Origin: Escherichia coli
GTDB lineage: Bacteria > Pseudomonadota > Gammaproteobacteria > Enterobacterales > Enterobacteriaceae
Direction: 5' to 3' (one strand)
Assembly: GCF_003334405.1 (NCBI RefSeq)
Contig: NZ_QOWM01000007.1
Length of the DNA: 64,000 nt
Position 1 is the stretch's first letter. Each line of letters opens with the position of its first letter. The notes under the pieces were generated by a model. It was not told where the DNA came from. It ran no database searches and worked only from the letters and a program-made list of their open reading frames with translations. The translations under genes and the position numbers were made by a program. Below are positions 2,515 to 64,000 of this stretch, in pieces.

Positions 2515-2578
2515 GTTGCCGCGTTATGCATCGATCGGGGTAAAGTAGAGAAGAACATACAGAGCACAAGGACTCTCC

Positions 2579-3268
2579 ATGACTCTCAATAAAACCGATC
2601 GCATTGTCATTACGCTGGGTAAACAGATCGTTCACGGCAAATACGTGCCAGGCTCGCCGCTTCCGGCTGAGGCGGAACTCTGTGAGGAGTTTGCAACCTC
2701 GCGCAACATCATCCGTGAGGTGTTCCGTTCGCTGATGGCGAAGCGGCTGATTGAAATGAAACGTTATCGCGGGGCGTTTGTGGCACCGCGTAACCAGTGG
2801 AATTACCTCGACACTGACGTACTGCAATGGGTGCTGGAAAATGACTACGACCCACGGCTTATCAGTGCCATGAGCGAAGTGCGAAATCTGGTGGAACCGG
2901 CGATTGCCCGTTGGGCAGCAGAGCGCGCGACTTCCAGCGATCTGGCGCAGATTGAATCGGCGCTGAACGAGATGATTGCCAACAATCAGGACCGCGAAGC
3001 GTTTAACGAAGCGGATATTCGCTACCACGAGGCGGTGCTGCAGTCGGTGCATAACCCGGTGTTACAGCAACTTAGCATTGCGATCAGTTCGCTGCAGCGG
3101 GCGGTTTTTGAACGAACCTGGATGGGCGATGAGGCCAACATGCCGCAAACGCTCCAGGAACATAAGGCGCTGTTCGATGCGATACGACATCAGGACGGCG
3201 ATGCGGCAGAGCAGGCGGCGCTTACCATGATCGCCAGCTCGACACGAAGGTTAAAGGAAATCACATGA
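2579..3268 (+). CDS. dgoR: GntR/FadR-family repressor of the D-galactonate operon
   Basis: 229-aa ORF with an N-terminal winged-HTH region (PLPAEAELCEEFATSRNIIREVF); first gene of the dgo operon. Confidence 0.95.
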   Translation: MTLNKTDRIVITLGKQIVHGKYVPGSPLPAEAELCEEFATSRNIIREVFRSLMAKRLIEMKRYRGAFVAPRNQWNYLDTDVLQWVLENDYDPRLISAMSEVRNLVEPAIARWAAERATSSDLAQIESALNEMIANNQDREAFNEADIRYHEAVLQSVHNPVLQQLSIAISSLQRAVFERTWMGDEANMPQTLQEHKALFDAIRHQDGDAAEQAALTMIASSTRRLKEIT

Positions 3269-4143
3269 CAGCTCGCTACATCGCAATTGACTGGGGATCG
3301 ACCAATCTGCGCGCCTGGCTTTATCAGGGCGACCACTGCCTGGAGAGCAGGCAATCAGAAGCAGGCGTCACGCGCCTGAACGGAAAATCTCCGGCTGCGG
3401 TGTTAGCAGAAGTCACGACCGACTGGCGTGAAGAGAAAACGCCAGTGGTAATGGCAGGAATGGTTGGCAGCAACGTCGGCTGGAAAGTTGCACCGTATTT
3501 ATCTGTTCCTGCCTGTTTTTCGTCTATTGGCGAACAATTAACGTCAGTTGGCGACAATATCTGGATTATTCCCGGATTATGTGTCTCTCATGACGATAAC
3601 CACAATGTGATGCGCGGCGAAGAAACACAATTGATCGGCGCGCGAGCTCTGGCTCCTTCCTCTCTTTATGTCATGCCCGGAACCCATTGCAAATGGGTGC
3701 AGGCCGATAGCCAGCAAATCAACGATTTTCGCACCGTGATGACCGGTGAATTACATCATTTACTGTTAAATCACTCATTGATTGGCGCAGGTTTGCCGCC
3801 GCAGGAAAACTCTGCCGATGCCTTCACAGCTGGCCTTGAGCGTGGTCTTAATACGCCCGCCATATTGCCGCAGCTTTTTGAAGTTCGCGCCTCGCATGTG
3901 CTGGGAACACTTCCCCGCGAACAGGTCAGCGAATTTCTCTCTGGTTTGTTGATTGGCGCAGAGGTCGCCAGTATGCGCGACTATGTGGCCCATCAACACG
4001 CCATCACCCTTGTCGCCGGAACATCGCTGACCGCGCGCTACCAGCAAGCCTTTCAGGCGATGGGTTGCGACGTGACGGCGGTGGCGGGCGACACGGCATT
4101 TCAGGCTGGTATAAGGAGCATCGCTCATGCAGTGGCAAACTAA
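3265..4143 (+). CDS. dgoK: 2-dehydro-3-deoxygalactonokinase
   Basis: 292-aa ORF; ATGA overlap with the dgoR stop; recognised DgoK sequence. Confidence 0.95.
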   Translation: MTARYIAIDWGSTNLRAWLYQGDHCLESRQSEAGVTRLNGKSPAAVLAEVTTDWREEKTPVVMAGMVGSNVGWKVAPYLSVPACFSSIGEQLTSVGDNIWIIPGLCVSHDDNHNVMRGEETQLIGARALAPSSLYVMPGTHCKWVQADSQQINDFRTVMTGELHHLLLNHSLIGAGLPPQENSADAFTAGLERGLNTPAILPQLFEVRASHVLGTLPREQVSEFLSGLLIGAEVASMRDYVAHQHAITLVAGTSLTARYQQAFQAMGCDVTAVAGDTAFQAGIRSIAHAVAN

Positions 4144-4744
4144 ACTCCCGCTGATCGCCATTTTGCGCGGTATTACGCCCGACGAGGCGCTGGCGCATGT
4201 TGGCGCGGTGATTGACGCCGGGTTCGACGCGGTTGAAATCCCGCTGAATTCCCCACAATGGGAGCAAAGCATTCCCGCCATCGTTGATGCGTACGGCGAC
4301 AAGGCGTTGATTGGCGCAGGTACGGTACTGAAACCTGAACAGGTCGATGCGCTCGCCAGGATGAGCTGTCAGCTCATCGTTACGCCCAATATCCATAGTG
4401 AAGTGATCCGCCGTGCGGTGGGCTACGGCATGACCGTCTGCCCCGGCTGCGCGACGGCGACCGAAGCCTTTACCGCGCTCGAAGCGGGCGCGCAGGCGCT
4501 GAAAATATTTCCGTCATCGGCTTTTGGTCCGCAATACATCAAAGCGTTAAAAGCGGTATTGCCATCGGACATCGCAGTCTTTGCCGTTGGCGGCGTGACG
4601 CCAGAAAACCTGGCGCAGTGGATAGACGCAGGTTGTGCAGGGGCGGGCTTAGGCAGCGATCTCTATCGCGCCGGGCAATCCGTAGAGCGCACCGCGCAGC
4701 AGGCAGCAGCATTTGTTAAGGCGTATCGAGAGGCAGTGCAATGA
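4127..4744 (+). CDS. dgoA: 2-dehydro-3-deoxy-6-phosphogalactonate aldolase
   Basis: 205-aa ORF; Shine-Dalgarno aaggag 9 bp upstream; overlaps the dgoK 3' end by 17 bp. Confidence 0.95.
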
Positions 4745-10214: not shown

Positions 10215-10316
10215 TACATCGTAGCCGATGAGGACGCGCCTGATGGGTGTTCTGGCTACCTGACCTGTCCATTGTGGAAGGTCTTACATTCTCGCTGATT
10301 TCAGGAGCTATTGATT

Positions 10317-10730
10317 ATGCGTAACTTTGATTTATCCCCGCTTTACCGTTCTGCTATTGGATTTGACCGTTTGTTTAACCACTTAGAAAACAACCAGAGC
10401 CAGAGTAATGGCGGCTACCCTCCGTATAACGTTGAACTGGTAGACGAAAACCATTACCGCATTGCTATCGCTGTGGCTGGTTTTGCTGAGAGCGAACTGG
10501 AAATTACCGCCCAGGATAATCTGCTGGTGGTGAAAGGTGCTCACGCCGACGAACAAAAAGAGCGCACCTATCTGTACCAGGGCATCGCTGAACGCAACTT
10601 TGAACGCAAATTCCAGTTAGCTGAGAACATTCATGTTCGTGGTGCTAACCTGGTAAATGGTTTGCTGTATATCGATCTCGAACGCGTGATTCCGGAAGCG
10701 AAAAAACCGCGCCGTATCGAAATCAACTAA
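10317..10730 (+). CDS. ibpA: Small heat-shock protein IbpA (alpha-crystallin family)
   Basis: 137-aa [20 protein letters not shown]... recognised as IbpA; Shine-Dalgarno aggag at 10303-10307; the ORF-track start at 10311 is an upstream TTG. Confidence 0.95.
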
Positions 10731-14135: not shown

Positions 14136-17456
<3,321 letters not shown>

Positions 17457-24096: not shown

Positions 24097-24186
24097 TTAC
24101 TTCAGGTATTTCAGAACAGCATCAAGCAGTTGCAGTGCTGCAACAATGAGTTTGAGGATAAGAATGGCGATATCCACCAGGTTCAT
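24097..24186 (-). CDS. tisB: Type I toxin TisB (29-aa membrane peptide, SOS-induced)
   Basis: Minus-strand translation gives MNLVDIAILILKLIVAALQLLDAVLKYLK then stop; too short for the ORF track. Confidence 0.9.
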   Translation of the reverse strand: MNLVDIAILILKLIVAALQLLDAVLKYLK

Positions 24187-24420: not shown

Positions 24421-24440
24421 TACTGTATAAATAAACAGTA
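24421..24440. promoter_or_regulatory. LexA operator (SOS box) of the tisAB/istR locus
   Basis: tactgtataaataaacagta, a perfect 20-bp palindrome matching the CTGT-N8-ACAG consensus, about 235 bp upstream of tisB. Confidence 0.85.
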
Positions 24441-24546
24441 ATATTTGGACAAAACGCAAACTGTGATCGATACTCAACTATGCACTAAATACGTCAAAAT
24501 TCGTGCCGAAATTGCGCGTTCTGCGCGGAACACGTATACTTTCAGT

Positions 24547-24622
24547 GTTGACATAATACAGTGTGCTTTGCGGTTACCAGCCGCAGGCGACTGACGAAAC
24601 CTCGCTCCGGCGGGGTTTTTTG
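24547..24622 (+). ncRNA. istR: Candidate IstR-1 antitoxin sRNA (boundaries approximate)
   Basis: Candidate -10 tatact at 24535-24540; a 21-nt segment (24547-24567) repeats the tisAB leader segment 24319-24339; ends at a hairpin plus gggtttttt at 24601-24622. Confidence 0.5.
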
Positions 24623-41422: not shown

Positions 41423-41517
41423 TGGCGGAAGATCACAGGAGTCGAACCTGCCCGGGACCGCTGGCGGCCCCAACTGGATTTGAAGTCCAGCCGCCTCACC
41501 GGAGACGACGATCTTCC
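41423..41517 (-). tRNA. selC: tRNA-Sec (selenocysteine tRNA, UCA anticodon)
   Basis: Minus strand reads GGAAGATCGTCGTCTCCGGTGAGGCGGCTGGACTTCAAATCCAGTTGGGGCCGCCAGCGGTCCCGGGCAGGTTCGACTCCTGTGATCTTCCGCCA, the E. coli selC sequence, 95 nt including the encoded CCA. Confidence 0.95.
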
Positions 41518-45572: not shown

Positions 45573-47282
45573 TTACTGCACCGGCTCCGTCGATGTAACT
45601 TCACCGCTGGAAACGACGCCCGCATTCATGGTTTGAGTCACTTGCTGCTTTGCGGCGTTCACGGCATGCAATTGCCCGCTAACCGTAGGTTTCAGCGGGG
45701 CATTGGCCTGAATATCTCCACTGGCGGTAAGCTGAATATTGCCGTCGCCAGTCAACGGTAATTCAGGCCATCCCCATTGTTGCAAAATATTCACCGGCAC
45801 ACCGCGTCCATTCAGGCTGATATGGGTCTGACGTTGTGGCGTTTGTGAAACACTGGCGGTGGCTTCCAGAATGCCTTTTTCAGTAAATGCACTCAGTTCG
45901 CTGATATTCACCGTGCTGCTGTTGGCGGTCAGCGCCAGCGACGGGCGACGAACATCAACACGATTGAATGTCGCGGCGGCGGCATTCAGATTCGCCGAGC
46001 CACTCCAGACGCCCCATTTATGATCGGTAACCAGCGTCAGGTTGGCACCGTAACCATCGAGCGTGGTGAGCTGCCACGGGAAGTCAGGGTCGATATCAAT
46101 GATCAGATTGCGGCTGGCGCTAAATCTCTTCAGTTGCAGGCTGTTTAACCAACCGGGTGTCGTTTCCATCCACAACTGTTGCCAGTTTTTCGGCAAGGTA
46201 TATTCCAGCCCGGCAATTGCCGCATCATCAAGGATCAACGTTTTCCCGTCACGCAGCCAGTTCCCTGACGTTCTGACCATACCCCCTTCCCAGCGGCTGG
46301 TGAACTGGCGCAGCGCTACGCCCTGCGGGGAAAATTCCGCGTTTATAATCGGGTCAAATAAATGCAGCGAACCATAAATGAACTCGCTAGCGTTCATCGA
46401 CAGTTTGCCTTCTTGTGTCTGCCAGTCATCTTTACTGAAGGTCATGTTGCGCAAGCTGAGATCGAGGTCGGTCACCGCCCAGTCCGGACCTTGCAAACGA
46501 GCATCGATCACTTCCAGGCGACCAATCTGCAACGACGGGACAGAGCGTAATGGCGCAAAGAAGTCGGTTAGCGATTTTTCGCTTTGTAGACGGATATCCG
46601 CCATGCGCAGGTTTTCCACTTGCCAGCTGCCGTCGGCGTTACGCTGCGCGTTTCCGGTTAATGTCCCGCGCGCGATGTCGGCACCCAGGTTAGTCAGCGT
46701 AACGCGATCGTTATCAATACTGCCTTCAATCAGTACATTGGTGGCAGGAACATCATTGAGCGAAAGCGATCCGGCACTAAACTGAATCTGCGCCTTCGTA
46801 CCCAGCACTTTACCGGCTTCTGGTGACCACGGAACCACGCCGCCATTTACCCGCTGCGCGCTCAGTTTCCATTCGCTATTCGGGCTATTAAACGCCATAT
46901 CACGCAGTTGCAGACGATCGGCTTTGAACGGTAGCGGCGCGGTCTGGTCGGTGAGATTCAGCGTCCCGTTTTCCAGCAGGATGGTATCGACATGGCGTGG
47001 TTCGGTCAGTTGCCGACTACTTAGCGCAATGTCGACACTTTTGGCCACCAGGGTCGCGGGCTGGCCATCACGACCAAACGTGACATTCTCCAGCACGATA
47101 TGAGATGGCGCGGAAAAACGGTGATCCATCGCCCCGAAGGCCAGATGATAGTCGCTATTCTCGGAAACCCATGCGCTGATATGTTCTGCTCCCCAGCGGG
47201 TTTGCAGAAGAAAATAGAGGCCAGCGATCACCACTAACAGAGCGATGAGAATGTAGAGAAGCAGCTTCCCAATAAATTTCAT
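45573..47282 (-). CDS. yicH: AsmA-family protein YicH
   Basis: ORF 45573..47306 trimmed to MKFIGKLLLYILIALLVVIAGLYF... (569 aa); N-terminal membrane anchor. Confidence 0.85.
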   Translation of the reverse strand: MKFIGKLLLYILIALLVVIAGLYFLLQTRWGAEHISAWVSENSDYHLAFGAMDHRFSAPSHIVLENVTFGRDGQPATLVAKSVDIALSSRQLTEPRHVDTILLENGTLNLTDQTAPLPFKADRLQLRDMAFNSPNSEWKLSAQRVNGGVVPWSPEAGKVLGTKAQIQFSAGSLSLNDVPATNVLIEGSIDNDRVTLTNLGADIARGTLTGNAQRNADGSWQVENLRMADIRLQSEKSLTDFFAPLRSVPSLQIGRLEVIDARLQGPDWAVTDLDLSLRNMTFSKDDWQTQEGKLSMNASEFIYGSLHLFDPIINAEFSPQGVALRQFTSRWEGGMVRTSGNWLRDGKTLILDDAAIAGLEYTLPKNWQQLWMETTPGWLNSLQLKRFSASRNLIIDIDPDFPWQLTTLDGYGANLTLVTDHKWGVWSGSANLNAAAATFNRVDVRRPSLALTANSSTVNISELSAFTEKGILEATASVSQTPQRQTHISLNGRGVPVNILQQWGWPELPLTGDGNIQLTASGDIQANAPLKPTVSGQLHAVNAAKQQVTQTMNAGVVSSGEVTSTEPVQ

Positions 47283-47402
47283 GGTCTTCCATCCCGTGAA
47301 ATGCACATAAGGGAGTTATGCACGATTTACGCGCAATCCTCAAGGCGGGAATGGTGAAAGAGGTGAGACTGCGGCGGTAATTATCTTACCGCCGCCAGTG
47401 AA

Positions 47403-48794
47403 TTACTGTTTTTCTGGTGGGAAAATCAGATTCAGCACGATGGCAGTAATACCGCCCGCGGCGATCCCGGAGGAGAGCAGGTTTTTCAGCCATTCAGGGG
47501 CAAACTGCAAAATCAGCGGCTGCTGAGACACGCCCAGACCAACCGCCAGCGACAGCGCGATAATCAGAATCGCCCGACGGTTCAGCGGCTCACGAGAAAC
47601 GATACGCACACCGGAGGCGGCGATGGTGCCAAACATTACAAGCGTTGCGCCGCCCAGAACCGGTTCTGGAATGTGTTGTACAAAACCGCTCACTGCCGGG
47701 AACAGACCCAGCACGATCAACATCAGCGCGACGACAAAACCGACATAGCGGCTGGCAACACCAGTCAACTGGATCACTCCGTTGTTTTGCCCGAAGCAGG
47801 AGTTCGGGAAGGTGTTAAACACCGCCGAAACAAACGAGTTCAGGCCGTTTGCCAGCACGCCACCTTTCAGGCGTTTCATGTACAGCGGACCGGACACTGG
47901 CTGTTCGGAAACGTCAGAGGTCGCCGTGATATCGCCAATGGTTTCCAGCGAAGTGATCATAAAGACCAGCATCAGCGGCAGCAGCAGACTCCATTCAATG
48001 CCAAGACCGTAATAGAGCGGCGTTGGCACCATAATCAGTTCTTGCGTCATCGGTTCGTTGCTTTCTGGCAACATGCCCATAAACCACGCCAGCGCATATC
48101 CGGCCGCCATCGCAATCACCAGTGAGGCCACGCGTAAGTAAGGGTTACGTTGACGGTTAAGCAGGATAATTAAGGCTAAGACCACGCCTGCCAGCAGCAG
48201 ATTTTTCGGTGCGCCGAAGGTGTTATCGCTCATGGCTGCGTAACCGCCGCCAATGGACGTTAACCCAACCTGAATTAGCGACAGGCCGATAATCATCACC
48301 ACAACGCCAGAAACCAGCGGCGTAATAATGCGGCGCGCCAGATGCAGAACGCGGGAGATCACCATCTCGGTGCAACTTGCCAGCATCAACGTGCCGAACA
48401 AAGCCGCCATCATGGTAGGAACATCAGCACCACCGGTTTTCAGCGCGGTACCGCCCATAATCAGCGGGGCAACAAAGTTGAAGCTGGTGCCCTGAATAGA
48501 CAACAGCCCGGAGCCAACCGGACCCCAGGCCTTAATTTGAATAATCGATGCCACACCGGAGGCAAACAGCGACATACTAATAATGTGTTGCGTGTCTTGT
48601 GCCGGTAAACCCAGCGCCTGGCAGATTAATAGCGCTGGCGTGATCACCGCAACGAACATCGCCAGCAGATGCTGACAGGCGGCAAACAGGGTTTGAGGAA
48701 GCGGCGGACGATCTTCAAGACGGTAAATCAGTTCGCTGTTTTGAGTCTGCGCAACCGGTTGCGCATTTTCTGACTCGAGGGTGGAAACAGACAT
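47403..48794 (-). CDS. xanP: Xanthine permease (NCS2 family)
   Basis: ORF 47403..48803 trimmed to [16 protein letters not shown]... (463 aa). Confidence 0.9.
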
Positions 48795-49073
48795 CGAAAA
48801 CAATCCCGTGGTAGCAAAGCGGGCATTTTAGCTGACCGAAAGAGAAAAGCAAACGTTTGCCACATCCTCATCTAAATATTTAAATGAGATAAATGCACTT
48901 TTTTATATAACTTTTGGTATTTTTCTGCTTAAAATCCATGCCATTTGTTCATTAACAGCTGAGAATTTGACCCAGGAAAGCATAACTCGATACCCGTCAT
49001 AGTTCATGAAGTTGCCACTGCGCGATGAAGTATGACGAGTATGAAAGAGTGATGCGGATACAAAGGAGTAACT

Positions 49074-50279
49074 ATGTTTCATCTCGATACTTTAGCAACG
49101 CTTGTTGCCGCAACGCTGACGTTGCTGCTCGGGCGTAAGTTGGTCCATTCCGTCTCCTTTTTGAAGAAATACACCATACCGGAACCTGTTGCGGGTGGTT
49201 TGTTGGTGGCGCTGGCGCTACTAGTACTGAAAAAAAGCATGGGCTGGGAAGTCAACTTTGATATGTCCCTGCGCGATCCGTTAATGCTGGCTTTCTTCGC
49301 CACCATTGGCCTGAACGCCAACATTGCCAGTTTGCGTGCCGGTGGGCGTGTGGTTGGCATCTTCTTGATTGTGGTTGTTGGTCTGTTGGTGATGCAAAAT
49401 GCCATTGGCATTGGTATGGCTAGCCTGTTAGGGCTTGATCCGCTGATGGGGCTGTTGGCCGGTTCTATTACGCTTTCCGGCGGTCACGGTACGGGCGCTG
49501 CGTGGAGTAAATTGTTCATTGAACGTTATGGCTTCACCAATGCGACGGAAGTGGCGATGGCCTGTGCAACGTTCGGTCTGGTGCTGGGCGGCTTGATTGG
49601 CGGTCCGGTGGCGCGCTATCTGGTGAAACACTCCACCACGCCGAACGGTATTCCGGATGACCAGGAAGTCCCGACGGCGTTTGAAAAGCCGGATGTGGGC
49701 CGCATGATCACCTCGTTGGTGCTGATTGAAACTATCGCGCTGATTGCTATCTGCCTGACGGTGGGGAAAATTGTTGCGCAACTTTTGGCTGGCACTGCTT
49801 TTGAACTGCCGACCTTCGTCTGTGTACTGTTTGTTGGCGTGATTCTGAGCAACGGTCTGTCAATAATGGGCTTTTACCGCGTCTTTGAGCGTGCGGTATC
49901 CGTGCTGGGTAACGTAAGCTTGTCGTTGTTCCTGGCGATGGCGTTGATGGGGCTGAAACTGTGGGAGCTGGCTTCGCTGGCGCTGCCGATGCTGGCGATT
50001 CTGGTGGTACAGACCATCTTCATGGCGTTGTATGCCATCTTCGTTACCTGGCGCATGATGGGCAAAAACTACGATGCGGCAGTGCTGGCTGCGGGTCACT
50101 GTGGTTTTGGCCTCGGTGCAACGCCAACGGCAATCGCCAACATGCAGGCGATCACTGAACGCTTTGGCCCGTCGCACATGGCGTTTTTGGTGGTGCCGAT
50201 GGTCGGTGCGTTCTTTATCGATATCGTCAATGCGCTGGTAATTAAGTTGTATTTGATGTTGCCGATTTTTGCCGGTTAA
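49074..50279 (+). CDS. gltS: Sodium/glutamate symporter
   Basis: 401-aa ORF recognised as GltS. Confidence 0.95.
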   Translation: MFHLDTLATLVAATLTLLLGRKLVHSVSFLKKYTIPEPVAGGLLVALALLVLKKSMGWEVNFDMSLRDPLMLAFFATIGLNANIASLRAGGRVVGIFLIVVVGLLVMQNAIGIGMASLLGLDPLMGLLAGSITLSGGHGTGAAWSKLFIERYGFTNATEVAMACATFGLVLGGLIGGPVARYLVKHSTTPNGIPDDQEVPTAFEKPDVGRMITSLVLIETIALIAICLTVGKIVAQLLAGTAFELPTFVCVLFVGVILSNGLSIMGFYRVFERAVSVLGNVSLSLFLAMALMGLKLWELASLALPMLAILVVQTIFMALYAIFVTWRMMGKNYDAAVLAAGHCGFGLGATPTAIANMQAITERFGPSHMAFLVVPMVGAFFIDIVNALVIKLYLMLPIFAG

Positions 50280-50322
50280 CCGATGAAGCGGCGGTAGAAG
50301 TGCCGCCGCAACAAAGACAAAT

Positions 50323-50410
50323 GCCTGATACGCTTCGCTTATCAAGCCTGCGTATTGATTCATAATTTATTGAATTTGTAGGGTGAATCGCATCCGGCAG
50401 GAAGGTAGGG
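50323..50410. repeat. REP elements
   Basis: gcctgatacgcttcgcttatcaagcctgcg and gtagggtgaatcgcatccggcag are REP-like palindromic units. Confidence 0.45.
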
Positions 50411-50444
50411 TAACCTGAAATGGCGGTCTTCTCACTGCCGCCTT

Positions 50445-52526
50445 TTACGCATTCGAGTAACGTTCTGTCTCCGGCATCCAGCGTTCTATCAAGGCTTTTG
50501 CCTGTTGTGGGTAACGTTCGTGAATATGTCGCGCCAGGCGCTGAACTTCCGGGATCATCGCCTGATCGCGCAGTAAATCCGCCACTTTAAATTCAGCATT
50601 ACCCGTCTGACGCGTGCCTAACAATTCGCCAGGGCCGCGAATCTCCAGATCTTTTTGCGCAATCACAAAACCGTCGTTACTGTCGCGCAGCACTTGCAGG
50701 CGAATTTGCGCCGTTTTAGAAAGCGGCGTTTTGTAGAGCAGCACGCAGTGAGAAGCCACCGCGCCACGACCTACGCGCCCGCGCAGCTGGTGTAACTGCG
50801 CCAGACCCAGACGCTCAGGGTTTTCGATAATCATCAGGCTGGCGTTAGGCACATCAACACCGACTTCAATAACGGTAGTGGCAACCAGCAGATGTAGCTC
50901 ACCTTGTTTAAACGACGCCATCACCGCCTGTTTCTCGGCTGGTTTCATCCGCCCGTGTACCAGGCCAACATTCAATTCTGGTAGCGCCAGTTTCAACTCT
51001 TCCCAGGTAGCTTCCGCCGCCTGCGCTTCCAGTAACTCTGACTCTTCAATCAACGTACAAACCCAGTACGCCTGACGACCTTCAGTTATGCAGGCGTGGC
51101 GCACGCGGTCAATGATGTCGGTACGGCGGGTATCAGGAATAGCGACCGTAGTCACTGGCGTGCGGCCTGGCGGCAGCTCATCTATCACCGAGGTATCGAG
51201 ATCGGCATACGCCGTCATTGCCAGCGTGCGGGGGATCGGCGTGGCGGTCATGATCAACTGATGCGGATGGAAGCCCTGCTGCTGGCCTTTCTCCCACAAT
51301 GCCAGACGCTGATGCACGCCAAAACGATGCTGTTCGTCGATAATCACCAGCGCCAGGCCGTTAAACTGCACCTGTTCCTGGAAGATGGCGTGTGTACCGA
51401 CAATCATCTGCACCTGACCGCTGGCGATGGCTTCCTGCTGAGACAGTCGCGCTTTGCCTTTCTGCTTACCGGCGAGCCAGCCCACTTTGATACCGAGCGG
51501 TGCAAACCAGTTGCGGAAGTTATTGGCGTGCTGCTCGGCGAGTAATTCGGTTGGTGCCATCAGTGCCACCTGTTTGCCGTGGGCAATCGCACGCAGCGCG
51601 GCGAGGGCGGCGACCAGCGTTTTACCGGAACCTACATCGCCCTGTACCAGGCGCATCATCGGCACATCCAGCGCCATATCATGCTCGATCTCCGCCACTA
51701 CGCGTGCCTGTGCGCCCGTTGGCTTGAACGGTAAGGCGGCGAGGAGTTTATTTTTCAGCGTGTCATTGGCGCTCAGCGGCTGGGCATGAAAACGCTGTGC
51801 TCCGGCACGTAAGGCTAACATGCTGAGGTTGTGCGCCAGCAGTTCTTCCAGAATCAGACGACGTTGCGCCGGATGCTGCCCGGTTTCCAGATCGCTAAGC
51901 TGTAGCGTCGGTGGCGGGCGGTGCAAAGTGCGCAACGCTTCCGGTAGCGTCATCATTCCTTGTGACAGTTCCGGCGGCAGGAGTTCTTCAATGGCGCAGG
52001 TGTCGAGCAGATCCAGCGCCTGGTCGGTTAATTTACGCAGCGTGGCCTGCTTTACGCCTTCCGTTGTTGGATAAACCGGCGTGAGCGTTTCCTGTAATTC
52101 TGGCGTGCTGAGATCGCCCTGCACGCGGTATTCCGGGTGGATCATCTCCGCACCATATTTACCGCGCTTTGCTTCGCCATAAGCCAGTACACGGCGGCCC
52201 GTCGCCAGGCTATTTTTCATTGCCGCGCTGAAATTGAAAAAGCGCATGGTGAGGATGCCGGAACCGTCGCTGATCTGGCAGGTCATCATCCGCCGACCGC
52301 CGAAGGAGATATTGCAGTTCAGCACTTCGCCTTCCACCGTGGCATAAACGCCCGGCAGTAGTTCTCCGATGGGGTAGAGATGGGTGCGATCTTCGTAGCG
52401 CAGGGGAAGGTGTAAGAGTAAATCCTGCACGGTATGCAGGTTGATTTTCGCCAGTTTGTTACTAAGCGCTGCGCCAACGCCCGTTAGGGAACTGAGCGGG
52501 ACAGTATCTAACAGGCGGCCTTTCAT
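50445..52526 (-). CDS. recG: ATP-dependent DNA helicase RecG
   Basis: ORF 50445..52559 trimmed to MKGRLLDTVPLSSLTGVG... (693 aa); Walker A motif GDVGSGKT and DEQH box present. Confidence 0.95.
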   Translation of the reverse strand: MKGRLLDTVPLSSLTGVGAALSNKLAKINLHTVQDLLLHLPLRYEDRTHLYPIGELLPGVYATVEGEVLNCNISFGGRRMMTCQISDGSGILTMRFFNFSAAMKNSLATGRRVLAYGEAKRGKYGAEMIHPEYRVQGDLSTPELQETLTPVYPTTEGVKQATLRKLTDQALDLLDTCAIEELLPPELSQGMMTLPEALRTLHRPPPTLQLSDLETGQHPAQRRLILEELLAHNLSMLALRAGAQRFHAQPLSANDTLKNKLLAALPFKPTGAQARVVAEIEHDMALDVPMMRLVQGDVGSGKTLVAALAALRAIAHGKQVALMAPTELLAEQHANNFRNWFAPLGIKVGWLAGKQKGKARLSQQEAIASGQVQMIVGTHAIFQEQVQFNGLALVIIDEQHRFGVHQRLALWEKGQQQGFHPHQLIMTATPIPRTLAMTAYADLDTSVIDELPPGRTPVTTVAIPDTRRTDIIDRVRHACITEGRQAYWVCTLIEESELLEAQAAEATWEELKLALPELNVGLVHGRMKPAEKQAVMASFKQGELHLLVATTVIEVGVDVPNASLMIIENPERLGLAQLHQLRGRVGRGAVASHCVLLYKTPLSKTAQIRLQVLRDSNDGFVIAQKDLEIRGPGELLGTRQTGNAEFKVADLLRDQAMIPEVQRLARHIHERYPQQAKALIERWMPETERYSNA

Positions 52527-52531
52527 GGCGC

Positions 52532-53221
52532 TTACCCTGCGGCCTGCATGGTGGACCACCAGTCAGCATCAGCTTCGATCTCGCCTTGCTGATTGACGTG
52601 GGGGTAAGGCAGGCCTTTGCGTTTTGCGACTTTCGCCAGCACCGGATAGCCGCCTTCAAACAACAGGCGTTGTTGCTCTGCTTCCGGCAACATGCTGTTT
52701 TCACGCAGGTACATGCCTGCATTTTGCCGCTGACGCTGGGCTTCGTAAAGAATGAGGGCTGAGGCAACGGAAACATTCAGCGACTGCACCATGCCGATCA
52801 TCGGAATGATGATGTCCTGATCCGCCAGGGCCAATGCTTCCTGCGTGATGCCCGTTTTCTCCTGTCCCATCAAAATGCAGGTCGGGCGAGTGTAATCAAT
52901 TTCGCGGAAATCGACAGCATTATCAGAAAGATGGGTTGCCAGAATCTGCATGCCCTGGCCTTTCAGATGAGCGACGGCATCGCCAATGGTGCGGTGTGTT
53001 TTCACCTGTACCCAGCTGTTACTACCCGCCGCTGCCGAAGCCATGGTGCGCATCCGGCTACCAGGCCAGACGGCGTGAACTTCATGTACGCCAACGGCAT
53101 CTGCGGTACGAATAATCGCAGAAACGTTATGAGGTTTGTGGACCTGCTCCATGCAGACGGTCAGGTCAGGCTGCCGCCTGGCGAGCATTTCGCAGATGCG
53201 TGCATAACGTGTTGGGTTCAT
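52532..53221 (-). CDS. trmH: tRNA (Gm18) 2'-O-methyltransferase
   Basis: 229-aa SPOUT-family ORF immediately downstream of spoT. Confidence 0.95.
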   Translation of the reverse strand: MNPTRYARICEMLARRQPDLTVCMEQVHKPHNVSAIIRTADAVGVHEVHAVWPGSRMRTMASAAAGSNSWVQVKTHRTIGDAVAHLKGQGMQILATHLSDNAVDFREIDYTRPTCILMGQEKTGITQEALALADQDIIIPMIGMVQSLNVSVASALILYEAQRQRQNAGMYLRENSMLPEAEQQRLLFEGGYPVLAKVAKRKGLPYPHVNQQGEIEADADWWSTMQAAG

Positions 53222-53227
53222 AAAACA

Positions 53228-55336
53228 TTAATTTCGGTTTCGGGTGACTTTAATCACGTCTGGCATCACGCGGATTTTGCGCATGATATTCGCCAGATGC
53301 ACACGGTCACGAGCGGTCAGACGAATAAAGGCGCTGTAGACGCGACCATCTTTCTCTTCCGTATTCAAACTTTGAATATTCGAGGTCGTGGTGTTAATTG
53401 CCGCCGTCAGGTTTGCCAGCGCACCCTGATGATTGAACATCTCCACCTTGATTTCGGTGATGAATTCCTGCGCCGTCTCTTTATCCCATTCCACAGCCAT
53501 AAACTTCTCTGGCTCTTTCTGGTAGCCACGGATGTTACGGCAGGATTCATGGTGGATCACCAGACCTTTACCGGGGCTGACGTGGGCGATAATCGGGTCG
53601 CCAGGAATAGGGCGGCAGCATTTCGCAAAGGTGATCAGCACGCCATCGGCACCTTTAATTGGCAGATGTCCGTGACTTTGGGTTGCCGGTGGAATGGAGG
53701 CGTCCCCATGTTGTAGATTTTTCGCGACCACCACGCTCATTGCGTTACCAAGGCCGATTTCAGCCAGCAGATCGTCAAGCGTTGCCAGCTTCATGCGATC
53801 CAGCTCGCGCTGAATATTTTCCTGCGGGATTTCATTCAGCTTACGGCTACCACCCAAAGCATGGTTGAGCAGACGACGGCCCAGGCTTACAGAATCATCA
53901 CGCTTGAGGTTTTTCAGCAACTGACGAATTTTGGCGCGCGCTTTTGAGCTAACGACAAAGTTCAGCCACGCGGCATTCGGGCGAGCGCCCGGTGCGGTAA
54001 TGATTTCAACGGTTTGACCGCTGGTAAGCGGCTGCGACAGCGGGTAAGGCTGGCGGTCAACGCGTGCGCCCACGCAGGCATGACCGATATCGGTATGCAC
54101 TGCATAAGCGAAGTCGACGGGCGTTGCACCGGCAGGCAGCTCGACAATGCGCCCTTCCGGTGTGAAAACGTAAATCTCATCCGGGAAGAGATCGGATTTA
54201 ACGCTCTCGATAAATTCAAACGAACTACCGGCGCTCTGTTGCAGCTCCAGCAGGCTTTGCATCCAGCGCTGGGCGCGGATTTGTGCGGTAGTACTGGTTT
54301 CGCCGTGCTCTTTATAAGCCCAGTGCGCGGCAACACCCATCTCCGCCATCTGATCCATATCTTCGGTACGGATCTGGACCTCAACCGGCACGCCGTGCGG
54401 GCCAATCATCGAGGTGTGCAAAGACTGATAGCCGTTCGCTTTTGGAATGGCGATATAGTCTTTCACGCGGCCCGGACGCGGCTTGTACAGGCTGTGCATC
54501 TGGCCCAGCACGCGATAACAGGTGTCAGAATCATTGACGATCACGCGGAAAGCGTAGATGTCCATGATTGAGTGAAAACGCTGCTCTTTGAGCACCATTT
54601 TGCAGTAAATCGAATAAAGATGCTTTTCGCGACCACTGACGCGGCACGGTATTCCCGCTTCCTGCAAACGCCCTTCGATTTCAGAAAGAATCTTCTGGAT
54701 CATCTCTTTACGGTTGCCGCGCGCGGCTTTCACCACTTCTTTGATTACGCGATAACGGTTGGGATACAGCGCCTCAAAACCCAGCTCTTCGAGTTCGGTT
54801 TTAATGTGGTGGATACCTAAACGGTGCGCCAGCGGGCTGTAAATTTCGAGAGTTTCACGGGCGATGCGGCGACGTTTGTCCGGGCGAAGTGAGCCCAGCG
54901 TGCGCATGTTGTGGGTACGGTCGGCAAGTTTGATGAGGATGACGCGGATATCCTGCACCATCGCCATAATCATCTTGCGAAAGTTTTCGGCCTGCGCCTC
55001 TTTCTTATCGCGGAACTTGAGTTTATCAAGTTTCGACACCCCCTCTACCAGCTCGGCGACGCTTTTACCAAAAAGCTGTTCCATATCCTGGTAGGTGGCG
55101 GGAGTATCTTCAATCACGTCATGCAGCAGCGCCGCCATCAGCGTTTCATAGTCGAGTTTCATCTCGGCCAGAATGCAGGCAACCGCTACCGGGTGCGTGA
55201 TATAGGGTTCACCGCTTGAACGTGTTTGCCCCTCGTGAGCATCACGTGCAACGAGATACGCCTGCCGCAGACGCTTGATTTGGTCTTCCGGCAGGTAGGT
55301 TTGAATCAGTTGATTCAGGCTTTCAAACAGATACAA
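53228..55336 (-). CDS. spoT: Bifunctional (p)ppGpp synthetase / hydrolase SpoT
   Basis: 702-aa ORF; HD-domain motif LLHDVIEDT in the N-terminal hydrolase region. Confidence 0.95.
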   Translation of the reverse strand: MYLFESLNQLIQTYLPEDQIKRLRQAYLVARDAHEGQTRSSGEPYITHPVAVACILAEMKLDYETLMAALLHDVIEDTPATYQDMEQLFGKSVAELVEGVSKLDKLKFRDKKEAQAENFRKMIMAMVQDIRVILIKLADRTHNMRTLGSLRPDKRRRIARETLEIYSPLAHRLGIHHIKTELEELGFEALYPNRYRVIKEVVKAARGNRKEMIQKILSEIEGRLQEAGIPCRVSGREKHLYSIYCKMVLKEQRFHSIMDIYAFRVIVNDSDTCYRVLGQMHSLYKPRPGRVKDYIAIPKANGYQSLHTSMIGPHGVPVEVQIRTEDMDQMAEMGVAAHWAYKEHGETSTTAQIRAQRWMQSLLELQQSAGSSFEFIESVKSDLFPDEIYVFTPEGRIVELPAGATPVDFAYAVHTDIGHACVGARVDRQPYPLSQPLTSGQTVEIITAPGARPNAAWLNFVVSSKARAKIRQLLKNLKRDDSVSLGRRLLNHALGGSRKLNEIPQENIQRELDRMKLATLDDLLAEIGLGNAMSVVVAKNLQHGDASIPPATQSHGHLPIKGADGVLITFAKCCRPIPGDPIIAHVSPGKGLVIHHESCRNIRGYQKEPEKFMAVEWDKETAQEFITEIKVEMFNHQGALANLTAAINTTTSNIQSLNTEEKDGRVYSAFIRLTARDRVHLANIMRKIRVMPDVIKVTRNRN

Positions 55337-55354
55337 GGGCGACCCGCTTTGTGA

Positions 55355-55630
55355 TTAACGACGACCTTCAGCAATAGCGGTAACGGCTTGTAATTCAGCG
55401 GCTTCCTGCTCTTGCTGTTCCTGGCGTTCGCGAACGTCGAGGATCTGGTTGTTGATCAGACCTTCTTCGATTTCGCGCAGCGCGATTACAGTGGTTTTAT
55501 CGTTTTCTTCCGGTACCAGCGGATCCTTTCCGCCTACCTGCATCTGACGAGCGCGACGCGCGGCGACCAGTACCAGGTCAAAACGGTTACCAATTTTCTC
55601 TACAGCGTCCTGAACAGTTACGCGTGCCAT
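55355..55630 (-). CDS. rpoZ: RNA polymerase omega subunit
   Basis: 91-aa [21 protein letters not shown]... recognised as RpoZ. Confidence 0.95.
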
Positions 55631-55684
55631 ACTTAAAAAGCTCCACAGGTGAAGAAATGACTGGGCATGATACTGAAATCAGGT

Positions 55685-58862
<3,178 letters not shown>

Positions 58863-59153
58863 GGTTCTCTCCCTAAAAATCTGTCTGGCAGGGTAGCGAT
58901 TTGTGCGTATTGTCACGATTGAGATTTTTTAAGGTGAGAGGAAATTGATAACTTGTAGTTATGTGAAATCGCTATTTTCTGTAGCGTAGATGCATTCTTC
59001 TGACTTCTTGTCTGAGAAAATGCATAAGAAAAAATAGGTTAAAATTGAGGGGTGGAAAAGAAAGGTGCAATGTTTAGCCATTGTGTTCACCGCACCTGGA
59101 CTTTGGCTTACGCATCGGGTATCTCAATCAACAAAAAGAGTTTTTAGTTTCTG

Positions 59154-59978
59154 CTATTTCTTCTCTGTAATTTTTACACTGTTTTCCAACTGCTTGATGC
59201 TGACCTGCGGGGTCGGCAACTCCTCAGGCATGGTTCCGCCAAGTTCCTGAATGGTTTGCATCACCTTGCTACCCACGTCAAAGTGTGTGGTATTAGCTTG
59301 CTGTTTTGAATTCACGCCATCCCGCTTGAGTTTTTCTTCTGTTTGGGTAGCTCGAAAGAGATTAGCCGCCAGTTCTGTTGAACCCATATGATCCAGGATC
59401 TTCTGATTCTTTTTCAGCCCCTTCCGCTGATGAATAGCTTTCTGATCTAATCCACCATACAGCCCCTGGTAACCATGATTCTGAAATATGGCGAAATCAG
59501 TAGCTGTCGCTACCCCAGCTTGCTGTGCTGCCTCAACCAATTGTTTGTTATGTTCTTTCAACTCATTTCTCAGAAACAGACGCTTTTCGTCTTCACGAAG
59601 TTGCTTAAATGCTTCATCGTCAGCAAGCTCCTGCCGTCGGGTCTGGATAGCAAAATAAGTCTGCCCTGCCGCAATGACCGGTTTCGCAGGGTCGCCGTTT
59701 TGTACTACCAGGTAACAGGCATAGCGGGAGAGTACGATGTCTTTTAATGCTCTTTTGGCATTTGAGCCAATTTTGACCATATCGAGGATCTCCTCGAAAT
59801 GGTCATCAATTGTGTGACCACTGTTCTCACAGGCTTCTTTGGCGCGCGTTAATACAGGTATAAAGTGACGATACTCTGAATAACCCAGTAGTTTCCCAAG
59901 TTGTCTTGCTGACCATTGTTCTGCTCCGTTTGCATTAATCAGTTTTATCTCTTCAAAAGGTTGATGATGTTCGTTCAT
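59154..59978 (-). CDS. dinD: DNA-damage-inducible protein D
   Basis: ORF 59154..59990 trimmed to MNEHHQPFEEIKLINANGAEQ... (274 aa). Confidence 0.9.
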   Translation of the reverse strand: MNEHHQPFEEIKLINANGAEQWSARQLGKLLGYSEYRHFIPVLTRAKEACENSGHTIDDHFEEILDMVKIGSNAKRALKDIVLSRYACYLVVQNGDPAKPVIAAGQTYFAIQTRRQELADDEAFKQLREDEKRLFLRNELKEHNKQLVEAAQQAGVATATDFAIFQNHGYQGLYGGLDQKAIHQRKGLKKNQKILDHMGSTELAANLFRATQTEEKLKRDGVNSKQQANTTHFDVGSKVMQTIQELGGTMPEELPTPQVSIKQLENSVKITEKK

Positions 59979-60021
59979 TGCCCACTCCATGTGATATCAA
60001 TTGCAAAGAAAGTAAATCTGT

Positions 60022-60041
60022 AACTGTATTTATATACAGTT
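60022..60041. promoter_or_regulatory. LexA operator upstream of dinD
   Basis: aactgtatttatatacagtt, a CTGT-N8-ACAG palindrome, 44 bp upstream of the dinD start. Confidence 0.7.
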
Positions 60042-60133
60042 GTGAGTATCTCACGTTCTCAGTGTGCTGGGCAAAAAAACATCGCAAAATCTGGAGCAGG
60101 CACGAAAAACAGAATTGAAAGTTGCGGGGAAGA

Positions 60134-60166
60134 AAAATGCCGCTCTGTTTGAGTGGGCGGCATTTG
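60134..60166 (-). terminator. Terminator-like hairpin after yicC
   Basis: aatgccgc...gcggcatt hairpin 35 bp past the yicC stop, followed on the minus strand by a T-run. Confidence 0.5.
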
Positions 60167-60199
60167 TGAAGGCTGAAAAGTAAGAATTGGCGTTACGAG

Positions 60200-61063
60200 T
60201 TATTCAATATTCTGAATCTGCTCGCGCATCTGCTCAATCAACACTTTCAGCTCAATCGCGGAGTTTGTCACTTCGGCATTGATAGACTTCGACGCAAGAG
60301 TGTTCGACTCGCGGTTGAACTCCTGCATCATAAAGTCCAGACGACGACCAACGGCTTCTTTTTTCTTCAGAATGTTGTAGGTCTCTTTGACATGCGCTTC
60401 GAGGCGGTCCAGTTCTTCGGCAACGTCAATTCGTTGTGCCAGCAGAACCAACTCCTGCTCCAGACGGTTGTTTTCCAACTGAACCTGAGCATCTTCCAGC
60501 TTCGCGACCAAGCGTTCACGCTGCCATTGCAGGATTTCCGGCATATGGGAGCGGACTTTGACCACTTCGGCGGTGACGCCTTCCAGACGCTGCTCGATCA
60601 ATGCTTTCAGTGCCTGACCTTCGGTTTCGCGCGCGACAATAAAGTCGTCCAGCGTACCATCCAGCGCCGCGAGAATTTCAGCGGCAATGGCGTCAAGATC
60701 CTGCTCCTGGGCTGCCATCACGCCCGGCCAGCGTAGAATATCAACCGGGTTGATTTCCCCTTCGTCACTCTGCATTTTTACCCAGTTCGCGGCAGTTACC
60801 AGCTGTTTAGCCAGTTTTTCGTTGAGGATCAGCTCACCTTGCGCGCTAACATCTGGCTCATAGCGCAGGGTACATTCCACTTTACCGCGCGTCAGGCGAG
60901 AACGAATACGCTCGCGAACGACAGGTTCAAGGCTACGGAACTGCTCCGGCAGACGAAAGTAAGTTTCCAGATAACGCTGGTTTACCGAGCGCATTTCCCA
61001 GGTTGCGCTCCCCCATTCACCCTTGATTTCACGCCGGGCGTAGGCGGTCATACTGCGGATCAT
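60200..61063 (-). CDS. yicC: YicC-family protein (UPF0701)
   Basis: 287-aa ORF recognised as YicC. Confidence 0.9.
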   Translation of the reverse strand: MIRSMTAYARREIKGEWGSATWEMRSVNQRYLETYFRLPEQFRSLEPVVRERIRSRLTRGKVECTLRYEPDVSAQGELILNEKLAKQLVTAANWVKMQSDEGEINPVDILRWPGVMAAQEQDLDAIAAEILAALDGTLDDFIVARETEGQALKALIEQRLEGVTAEVVKVRSHMPEILQWQRERLVAKLEDAQVQLENNRLEQELVLLAQRIDVAEELDRLEAHVKETYNILKKKEAVGRRLDFMMQEFNRESNTLASKSINAEVTNSAIELKVLIEQMREQIQNIE

Positions 61064-61189
61064 AGACGTTCCTGTTTATAAAAGGAGAGGTGGAAGGATT
61101 ATAGCCATCGATGCCTTGTCAGGATAGGAATAACCGCCGGAAGTCCGTATAATGCGCAGCCACATTTGTTTCAAGCCGGAGATTTCAAT

Positions 61190-61906
61190 ATGCGTCCAGC
61201 AGGCCGTAGCAATAATCAGGTGCGTCCCGTTACCCTGACTCGTAACTATACAAAACATGCAGAAGGCTCGGTGCTGGTCGAATTTGGCGATACCAAAGTG
61301 TTGTGTACCGCCTCTATTGAAGAAGGCGTGCCGCGCTTCCTGAAAGGTCAGGGCCAGGGCTGGATCACCGCAGAGTACGGCATGCTGCCACGTTCTACCC
61401 ACACCCGTAACGCTCGTGAAGCGGCGAAAGGTAAGCAGGGTGGACGCACAATGGAAATCCAGCGTCTGATCGCCCGTGCGCTTCGCGCGGCAGTAGATTT
61501 GAAAGCGCTGGGTGAGTTCACCATTACGCTGGACTGCGACGTGCTTCAGGCTGATGGTGGCACGCGTACCGCTTCGATTACGGGTGCCTGTGTGGCGCTG
61601 GCAGATGCGCTACAGAAGCTGGTGGAAAACGGCAAGCTGAAAACCAACCCGATGAAAGGGATGGTAGCCGCGGTTTCTGTCGGGATTGTGAACGGCGAAG
61701 CGGTTTGCGATCTGGAATACGTTGAAGACTCTGCCGCAGAGACCGACATGAACGTAGTGATGACCGAAGACGGGCGCATCATTGAAGTGCAGGGGACGGC
61801 AGAAGGCGAGCCGTTCACCCATGAAGAGCTACTCACCTTGTTGGCGCTGGCCCGAGGGGGAATCGAATCCATTGTAGCGACGCAGAAGGCGGCGCTGGCA
61901 AACTGA
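61190..61906 (+). CDS. rph: Ribonuclease PH, full-length wild-type form
   Basis: ORF 61166..61906 (TTG) trimmed to the [17 protein letters not shown]... (238 aa), ending ...[16 protein letters not shown]; not the 228-aa truncated rph-1 form. Confidence 0.95.
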
Positions 61907-61912
61907 TTTTTA

Positions 61913-61938
61913 AGGCGACTGATGAGTCGCTTTTTTTT
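61913..61938 (+). terminator. pyrE attenuator terminator
   Basis: gcgact-gatg-agtcgc hairpin followed by tttttttt, starting 7 bp after the rph stop and 33 bp before the pyrE ATG. Confidence 0.7.
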
Positions 61939-61970
61939 GTCTGTAGAAAAGTAAGATGAGGAGCGAAGGC

Positions 61971-62612
61971 ATGAAACCATATCAGCGCCAGTTTATTGAA
62001 TTTGCGCTTAGCAAGCAGGTGTTAAAGTTTGGCGAGTTTACGCTGAAATCCGGGCGTAAAAGCCCCTATTTCTTCAACGCCGGGCTGTTTAATACCGGGC
62101 GCGACCTGGCACTGTTAGGCCGTTTTTACGCTGAAGCATTGGTGGACTCCGGCATTGAGTTCGATCTGCTGTTTGGCCCTGCTTACAAAGGGATCCCGAT
62201 TGCCACCACAACCGCCGTGGCGTTGGCGGAGCATCATGACCTGGACCTGCCGTACTGCTTTAACCGCAAAGAGGCAAAAGACCACGGTGAAGGCGGCAAT
62301 CTGGTTGGTAGCGCGTTACAAGGACGCGTAATGCTGGTAGATGATGTGATCACCGCCGGAACGGCGATTCGTGAGTCGATGGAAATTATTCAGGCCAATG
62401 GCGCGACGCTTGCTGGCGTGTTGATTTCGCTCGATCGTCAGGAACGGGGGCGCGGCGAGATTTCGGCGATTCAGGAAGTTGAGCGTGATTACAACTGCAA
62501 AGTGATCTCTATCATCACCCTGAAAGATCTGATTGCTTACCTGGAAGAGAAGCCGGAAATGGCGGAACATCTGGCGGCGGTTAAGGCCTATCGCGAAGAG
62601 TTTGGCGTTTAA
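61971..62612 (+). CDS. pyrE: Orotate phosphoribosyltransferase
   Basis: ORF 61956..62612 trimmed to [21 protein letters not shown]... (213 aa); PRPP-binding motif [14 protein letters not shown]. Confidence 0.95.
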
Positions 62613-62648
62613 AGAAACTCGCCGGATGAAAATTCATCCGGCGTCATA

Positions 62649-63245
62649 TTACTGCAACTGCGCGGCAATTAGCGGCCAGCGGGCGTCAAAATCATCCGTC
62701 GGGCGGTATTTAAATTCGCTGCGGACAAAACGTGACAGCATACCTTCACAGAAGGCCAGGATCTGGCTTGCCAGCAGGGTTTCATCGGTGGTGTAACCTT
62801 CACCCTCACGCATTCTCTTTTCACGCAATACCTGGCGCAGCTGCGCTTCAATACGCTCGAACAGCTGGTTGATGCGCCCTTGCAGGCGATCCTGTTCAAA
62901 CATTAGCGCATGACCAGTGAGGATGCGGGTCAGGCCAGGATTACGCTCACCAAAACCGAGAAGCAGCAACACAATCAGACGCAGGCGCGCTGTGGTGTCT
63001 TTCTCATCTTTCAGAATCAGATTGATGCGAGTAATCAGGCTATCTTCGATAAACTCAATCAGGCTATCGAACATGCGGGTCTTACTGGGGAAGTGGCGAT
63101 ACAGTGCCGCTTCGGAAACGCCGACAGAGGCGGCCAGTTTTGCCGTCGTGATACGTTGGCTTCCATCGCTGGATTCCAGCATCAGCGCCAGAGACTGAAG
63201 TATTTCCTCGCGACGGTTCCTTTTCGCAGTTTGTTTTTCTGCCAT
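62649..63245 (-). CDS. slmA: Nucleoid occlusion factor SlmA (TetR family)
   Basis: ORF 62649..63287 trimmed to [20 protein letters not shown]... (198 aa); N-terminal TetR-type HTH. Confidence 0.9.
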
Positions 63246-63351
63246 GTTACAAAATACCCCTGAAAATAAGCACTTGCCAGGCGGCACCCACGCTATGACC
63301 GCAAACGAAATGTTTGCGGCTATGTTATGACGTTATTCGGATGCGTATGTG

Positions 63352-63810
63352 TTACTGACGACCAGAGTGACCAAAGCCGCCTTCACCGCGGTCGGTGGCG
63401 TCGAAATCTTCCACCAGATTAAATTCAGCCTGTACTACCGGAACAAAAATCATCTGGGCGATGCGTTCGCCAGGTTGAATGGTGAAGCTGTCCTGACCAC
63501 GGTTCCACACGGAAATCATCAACTGGCCCTGATAGTCGGAATCGATCAATCCTACCAGGTTACCAAGCACGATACCGTGCTTATGTCCCAATCCGGAGCG
63601 CGGCAGCATCATTGCCGCCAGTGAAGGATCGGCAATATGAATCGCCAGCCCGGTCGGAACCAGCGTAGTGTCACCCGGAGCCAGTTCTACGGCGTCGTCG
63701 AGACAGGCACGCAGGTCAAGTCCGGCAGAGCCAGAGGTGGCATAAGTCGGGAGCGGAAATTCCTTCCCAACGCGCGGGTCCAGAATCTTAACGTCGATTT
63801 TTTTCATCAT
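63352..63810 (-). CDS. dut: dUTP diphosphatase
   Basis: 152-aa [15 protein letters not shown]... recognised as Dut; start could be the second ATG at 63807. Confidence 0.95.
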
Positions 63811-64000
63811 AACGGGTCACGATCTCGTCGAGTAATAATTGGCCAAGGAGCTCTTTGCGCTCAAGCGGTAAGACTTTATCTCCGTCCTGCCAGAAAAGGT
63901 GTAATGCGTTGTTGTCGCTGTTAAATCCTTGAGTTGGCTGGGAAACATCGTTCGCGCAGATCAGATCAAGGTTTTTACGGATACGTTTTTGCCGGGCGTA
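63788..64000 (-). CDS. coaBC: Phosphopantothenoylcysteine decarboxylase / synthetase, 3' end only (partial)
   Basis: Minus-strand frame ends ...[16 protein letters not shown] then TAA, overlapping the dut start; the N-terminus lies beyond the window end. Confidence 0.75.

Follow-up and report, generated by a model that had tools for sequence, protein, structure and literature searches.

The 20-bp site at positions 60022-60041 of the window (the whole stretch of E. coli DNA that was analysed, 64,000 nucleotides long) can be assigned, with a probability of about 95%, as the LexA operator of E. coli dinD. This operator is fully described in the literature, which covers its sequence, its regulator and its induction phenotype, and the finding serves as a positive control, in that a reading of the sequence alone recognised two canonical SOS operators; nothing is added to SOS biology. 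In what follows, the identity of the site, its matrix score, its rarity, its conservation and its gene context come from the present analysis, and the LexA-dependent induction of dinD by DNA damage comes from the literature.

The dinD gene and its operator

The gene, its leader and the operator lie on the minus strand, as follows.

59154-59978, minus strand: dinD coding sequence, 274 aa, beginning MNEHHQPF (open reading frame, RefSeq annotation, NF008573, PF02498)
59979-60021, minus strand: 5' leader of dinD, from the box to the ATG (read from the sequence)
60022-60041, minus strand: LexA operator (SOS box) of dinD (exact match, identity with the published box, matrix, conservation)

The minus-strand gene at 59154-59978 is dinD, as established by its match to the NF008573 equivalog, by the RefSeq annotation and by synteny with b3645 of K-12. 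The predicted protein scores 483.5 bits over residues 1-274 against the NCBIfam equivalog NF008573 ('DNA damage-inducible protein D'), whose cut-off is 242, and it carries a Bro-N domain (Pfam PF02498) at residues 10-105 (E 4.6e-7). The DNA of the window is chromosomal, with the gene order ligB-yicG-dinD-yicC-rph-pyrE; in K-12 the yicC-dinD-yicG order is the same, although b3645 lies in the opposite orientation in MG1655. The DinD proteins of K-12 and of the window differ at 2 of 274 residues, while the 20-bp box of K-12 dinD (pcsA, b3645) is identical to the one described here, as are the promoter and leader from the -35 hexamer through to the start codon. Around the box, a segment of 1.35 kb is likewise 100% identical to that of E. 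coli CFSAN061772.

Two further differences from these strains were observed. The rph gene (61190-61906) is intact in the window, whereas it is truncated in K-12 MG1655, and an integrase/IS/autotransporter island of about 8 kb, which stands beside selC in CFSAN061772, is missing from the window, where tRNA-Sec is found at about 41427-41517. The window therefore stems from a strain other than these two.

An exact 20-mer search placed AACTGTATTTATATACAGTT at 60022-60041, and this is its single occurrence in the 64-kb window. When this site is read on the coding strand of dinD (minus), it becomes AACTGTATATAAATACAGTT, which is letter for letter the dinD SOS box listed in Table 4 of PMC3009722. The original prediction had claimed such a box for dinD and had quoted it on the plus strand, while dinD itself is a minus-strand gene (59154-59978); the match to the published box and the matrix score described below bear the claim out. 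The site is an imperfect palindrome, with 18 of 20 positions self-complementary and one central pair mismatched, and its CTGT-N8-ACAG core is exact at 60024-60039. The gap between the box and the ATG at 59978 is 43 nt, or 44 when the first base of the start codon is included, and by the latter count the palindrome lies where it had been predicted, 44 bp upstream of dinD and inside 59979-60060.

LexA matrix scores and chance expectation

To score the site, a 20-column LexA matrix was made from 16 published E. coli operators (PMC3009722, Table 4), from which dinD and istR2/tisAB had been excluded, so that the test is not circular. Three sites were returned from the 64-kb window, here given with their heterology index (HI), and no other site in the window exceeded 12 bits with this matrix.

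24421-24440: tisAB/istR, 29.3 bits, HI 0.85
60022-60041: dinD, 26.7 bits, HI 2.50
1654-1673: 3' end of yidX, 18.2 bits, HI 7.09

The maximum of the matrix is 30.5 bits, and a low score, which had been named as the outcome that would count against the prediction, was seen neither for dinD nor for tisAB/istR, the latter being the top site of the window and the sole one stronger than dinD. The dinD box beats 13 of the 16 training operators, whose scores range from 16.8 to 30.1 bits, and the training sites above it are only umuDC, sbmC and recN (30.1, 30.1 and 27.8 bits). These three operators are the highest-affinity SOS boxes, and they belong to the same score class as dinD; they differ from it in having T and A at positions 1 and 20, where dinD has A and T, and in their spacer, which is TATATAAAAA as opposed to TATATAAATA in dinD. 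The published heterology index of the dinD box is 2.2, among the lowest of the regulon (PMC11228462), as compared with 2.50 computed here, and the two values are in the same range.

An AT-rich intergenic inverted repeat that arose by chance and has no regulatory role could in principle give rise to such a palindrome, and the bare CTGT-N8-ACAG core does little against this reading, since a mean of 0.57 cores is found per shuffled window and the core is thus uninformative alone. Two or more bare cores occurred in 36 of 300 shuffles, and the core with one mismatch is not enriched in the window (12 observed as against 17.7 expected). The full site behaves differently. When the window was shuffled with its dinucleotides preserved, the best hit per shuffled window had a mean of 13.0 bits (sd 2.3, n=100) and a maximum of 21.1, well short of the 26.7 bits of dinD, and cores whose spacer is entirely A/T, of which the real window has two, turned up in 2 of 300 shuffled windows, with no shuffle containing a pair. 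In addition, the site hardly varies within E. coli, unlike the leader and coding sequence beside it, and LexA-dependent induction of dinD has been published (both described below). The probability of a chance repeat is thereby brought close to zero.

The third LexA-like 20-mer, TACTGCATATACAACCAGAA at 1654-1673, has a score similar to those of the weakest proven operators, and was rejected as an operator for having no promoter nearby. It sits where yidA and yidX converge, within the 3'-terminal part of the yidX ORF, and since its 18.2 bits fall inside the range given by the shuffles it was discounted; this site is probably a product of chance. Two other genes of the window, ibpA and glvB, are named in a review as 'potential SOS box' genes. 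The former (with its ROSE element) lies at about 10251-10730, and glvB is probably the unnamed PTS IIB gene found at about 14136-15752; near ibpA and the putative glvB, the leave-out matrix gave no LexA site above 12 bits.

Published regulation of dinD

The dinD gene is said to have been among the original din::Mu d(Ap lac) fusions of Kenyon and Walker, and binding of LexA to its box was reportedly shown by Lewis et al. in 1994. In a review, dinD is entered under 'Known SOS box' (PMC6590174), and LexA binding is thus available by secondary citation.

With respect to induction, the LexA dependence of dinD has been confirmed by RT-qPCR in lexA71::Tn5 (Def) and lexA3 (Ind-) strains (PMC3009722). 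In cells treated with AZT, dinD was up 9.8-fold, with a 12-fold dependence on cleavable LexA and no dependence on SspA (0.77) (PMC11228462), and in a time course with ciprofloxacin, dinD mRNA reached log2 4.5 and the DinD protein log2 5.3-5.8 (PMC11002266). LexA-dependent induction of dinD has been published also after UV. The check that had been proposed for the predicted box, namely damage induction of dinD in lexA(Def) as compared with lexA(Ind-) backgrounds, had therefore already been carried out by RT-qPCR with a positive outcome, and a lack of damage induction, which would have counted against the predicted box, is contradicted by the AZT and ciprofloxacin data.

Promoter, leader and transcription unit

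The elements between the yicC and dinD genes that were placed by promoter scanning and RNA folding are as follows.

60069-60074, minus strand: candidate -35 hexamer TTGCCC of the dinD promoter (best relaxed sigma-70 match, 18-nt spacer)
60045-60053, minus strand: candidate extended -10 TGaGATACT of the dinD promoter (relaxed scan)
60135-60165, minus strand: probable intrinsic terminator of yicC, a hairpin with a 9-bp stem, then UUUUUCUU (RNA fold)

A strict consensus scan of 59000-60300 for promoters and terminators found nothing, while a relaxed sigma-70 scan of the yicC-dinD intergenic region gave a candidate promoter that matches 8 of 12 consensus positions and whose extended -10 would leave 3 nt before the LexA box begins. 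Both candidate hexamers are invariant in all aligned E. coli sequences with that segment, and three positions of the spacer vary; judged from the alignment, hexamers that are fixed while their spacer varies are the pattern that would be expected of a real promoter. Downstream of the box, a GGAG Shine-Dalgarno sequence at 59985-59988 stands 6 nt ahead of the dinD ATG, which favours the annotated start codon over another in-frame ATG that lies four codons further upstream.

With 3 nt between the candidate -10 and the box, transcription would be expected to start within the first bases of the operator, and bound LexA would therefore block initiation. It is thus most likely that LexA acts on dinD by occluding its transcription start. 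Given that the strict scan was empty and that a literature search found no mapped dinD transcription start, the geometry of promoter, start site and operator, and hence occlusion itself, is something that we infer.

It could also be argued that the palindrome acts mainly as RNA, with LexA binding secondary; the box would then fold into an 8-bp hairpin at the very start of the dinD message, with a stabilising effect on the mRNA or an influence on its translation. The candidate promoter would have most of the box transcribed, and the predicted fold of the leader does open with the 8-bp hairpin made by the box. However, any DNA palindrome gives a hairpin of this sort, and the leader as a whole folds no better than shuffled sequences (z -0.79, with 43 of 200 shuffles folding as well), so that RNA structure is unlikely to be the function of the box. 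Moreover, the site matches the LexA matrix position by position, the unpaired central bases included, and dinD expression is under the control of the lexA genotype, and an RNA role as the main function of the palindrome is accordingly held to be very improbable.

The yicC gene lies upstream of dinD and is co-directional with it, its stop codon being at 60200, 221 bp away. Between the two genes, the hairpin at 60135-60165 folds with -12.4 kcal/mol (z -4.87), a value equalled by 0 of 200 shuffles; it was missed by the strict scan because its loop is 13 nt. This hairpin most likely terminates yicC, and with this terminator upstream, dinD would be a single-gene LexA-controlled unit. The arrangement bears on a further reading, according to which LexA does bind at the box and the box is nevertheless minor, dinD being induced mainly by read-through from yicC or by another regulator. 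The co-directional position of dinD 221 bp downstream of yicC and the weak match of the dinD promoter to consensus are in keeping with read-through or a second regulator, while the strong terminator-like hairpin with its U-run between the genes speaks against the former. With regard to another regulator, induction is lost in lexA3 (the 12-fold dependence mentioned above), SspA dependence is none, at 0.77, and the LexA dependence of dinD has been confirmed in both Def and Ind- mutants, which makes it most unlikely that the box plays only a minor part.

Direct control of dinD by LexA at 60022-60041 is the preferred reading, and the course of events in this system would be as follows. In an undamaged cell, a LexA dimer would occupy the near-consensus 20-bp palindrome. 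Upon DNA damage, filaments of RecA on single-stranded DNA would form and lead to self-cleavage of LexA, and the operator, once freed, would allow dinD to be transcribed as a single-gene unit that is bounded upstream by the putative yicC terminator. The product, a Bro-N-domain protein, is reported to help clear RecA filaments, a role for which PMC4849656 cites Uranga et al. (2011). The operator of tisAB/istR, at a distance of 35.6 kb, would work in the same mode and independently.

Conservation of the operator within E. coli

An alignment of 9 E. coli lineages was used to compare the parts of the locus, with the following shares of variable columns.

LexA box: 1 of 20 columns (5%)
dinD promoter region: 7.7%
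Leader, from box to ATG: 14%, more than in any other non-coding part of the locus
dinD coding sequence: 15.5%

The LexA box is thus more conserved than the surrounding non-coding DNA (5% as opposed to 14% in the leader), and in the N-terminal third of the dinD coding sequence the share of variable columns rises to 22-48%. A match to the promoter/operator segment was found in 4,706 of 5,426 complete E. coli genomes, with about 980 genomes falling in the 90-95% identity band of the most divergent promoter class. Five sequences were sampled from this class (O102:H6, A3176, AR_0372, AST240 and, in two halves, 24AR0180), and in all five the sole change within the box is T14C. This change, which is the commonest box variant, keeps both arms of the palindrome and scores 26.2 bits.

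In 24AR0180, the box itself has been interrupted by an ISL3-family element (ISKox3), with ATATAA duplicated at both junctions. The interrupted site, at positions 1870-3260 of the 24AR0180 locus, is the equivalent of 60022-60041 in the window, and each of its junctions scores at most 2 bits, the operator being split. The dinD gene downstream of this split box is a frameshifted pseudogene.

The tisAB/istR operator

The second SOS locus of the window, and the stretch of dinD that is related to it, are made up of the following features.

24421-24440, no strand assigned: second LexA operator TACTGTATAAATAAACAGTA, common to the divergent tisAB and istR-2 (29.3 bits; published istR2 box)
24492-24621, plus strand: istR small RNA, the tisB antitoxin (Rfam RF01400, 150.1 bits, E 3.7e-31)
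24097-24186, minus strand: tisB toxin coding sequence (sequence; RefSeq annotation of the collinear CFSAN061772 segment)
59187-59202, minus strand: 16-nt stretch in the dinD mRNA that is complementary to tisAB (exact opposite-strand matches; PMC2577331)

The tisAB/istR type I toxin-antitoxin locus is present here, with istR divergent from tisB and the LexA box between them. The istR2 box has been published (PMC3009722), and its heterology index is 1.8 (PMC11228462). The original prediction had described two separate SOS loci about 36 kb apart; the box at 24421-24440 is real, and the distance between the dinD and tisAB operators is 35,601 bp. The two boxes are alike in being near-consensus 20-bp sites of the form CTGT-(A/T)8-ACAG with a very low published heterology index (1.8 for tisAB/istR-2 and 2.2 for dinD), and they are the only two near-consensus sites of this form in the 64 kb. 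They differ in their setting, as the tisAB box stands between divergent units, a toxin mRNA and a small RNA, whereas the dinD box controls just one gene, which encodes a protein, and in the extent of induction by AZT, which is 73-fold for tisB as opposed to 9.8-fold for dinD (PMC11228462).

The RNAs of the two loci also share an exact 16-nt complementarity, between tisAB RNA (24117-24132, minus strand) and the dinD mRNA near its 3' end (59187-59202). This complementarity has been described previously, in a study in which no tisAB-dependent cleavage of dinD mRNA was seen (PMC2577331), and chance alone would give about 0.74 such 16-mer matches to tisAB RNA in the whole genome.

Variation of dinD and its homologs

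Beyond the operator, dinD was found to be a presence/absence cassette of about 1.2 kb, which is carried by about 4,670 of 5,426 complete E. coli genomes and is missing from about 14%. Besides the gene, the unit, at about 59040-60221, takes in the LexA box and the yicC terminator, together with the final 7 or so codons of yicC, and its GC content is 0.40-0.47 as compared with 0.52-0.57 in the flanks. In APEC17 (positions 3746-3998 of the locus retrieved from that strain), the equivalent of about 59040-60221 is replaced by about 75 nt of unrelated sequence.

Where the gene is present, it occurs as two alleles, whose identity is 62% over residues 1-105 (the Bro-N part) and 98% over residues 106-274; the dimorphic region, as compared in five loci, corresponds to 59680-59950 of the window, or about codons 11-100 of dinD. 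Of the complete genomes, 1,896 have the allele of the window and of K-12 and 2,767 the alternative one (for example O157:H7), and both classes stand behind essentially the same operator and promoter. That two forms of the Bro-N domain stand behind one invariant operator is a hint that DinD may have different partners in vivo in different E. coli lineages, which is relevant because the physiological role of DinD is still poorly defined. One could go further and regard dinD as a movable Bro-N cassette and DinD as an SOS-triggered effector whose N-terminal recognition module is being diversified or exchanged, for example in conflict with phages or satellites, and not as a housekeeping modulator of RecA, although we consider this a speculative and rather unlikely reading. 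While the operator is well known, the evolutionary setting of dinD may be undescribed.

Homologs of DinD are found outside Escherichia, in unrelated gene contexts. One in Klebsiella, with about 71% identity, occupies a different chromosomal site, between ibpB and a yidE-like gene, and has an apparent internal stop; another, with 64% identity, lies beside parAB on a Thiothrix plasmid, and a third, with 58% identity, is found in Neisseria. Full-length homologs with 52-60% identity are also present on Streptococcus satellite phages and on gut phage contigs. In the 210 nt upstream of the Klebsiella, Thiothrix and Neisseria genes there is no LexA-like site (the best scoring 7.4 bits), and the best site anywhere in these three loci of 5.8 kb, at 11.1 bits, is 1.6 kb away from the gene. 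A near-consensus LexA box is therefore seen only at the Escherichia locus among the four genera that were sampled, and with no box at the three homologs outside Escherichia, the operator seems to be a property of the Escherichia locus rather than of the family. The Thiothrix, Zymomonas and Streptococcus copies are annotated as 'DNA damage-inducible protein D', and the Klebsiella and Neisseria copies have no listed annotation; as no LexA box was found upstream of the three sampled homologs, this name, which many homologs of this kind bear, may often be wrong outside Escherichia.

Two records of 'Campylobacter phage' gave DinD matches of 99.3%, and these were rejected as phage homologs, the A18a record segment being E. 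coli chromosome. In that record (MG065686.1, 'UNVERIFIED: Campylobacter phage A18a'), positions 46367-55188 are 99.1% identical to 55155-63979 of the window over 8.8 kb, and the E. coli DNA in it is probably the result of contamination or misassembly and not a phage dinD. The second record is that of A11a, whose DinD match is 99.3%.

A different arrangement upstream of the gene was seen in E. coli A3176 (positions 2800-4300 of its locus) and O111:H8, where homology with the window stops just upstream of the yicC terminator. In some strains, a PerC-family regulator and a hypothetical protein are found between dinD and the expected position of yicC, and in A3176 and O111:H8 this suggests that an island has been inserted at the dinD-yicC junction.
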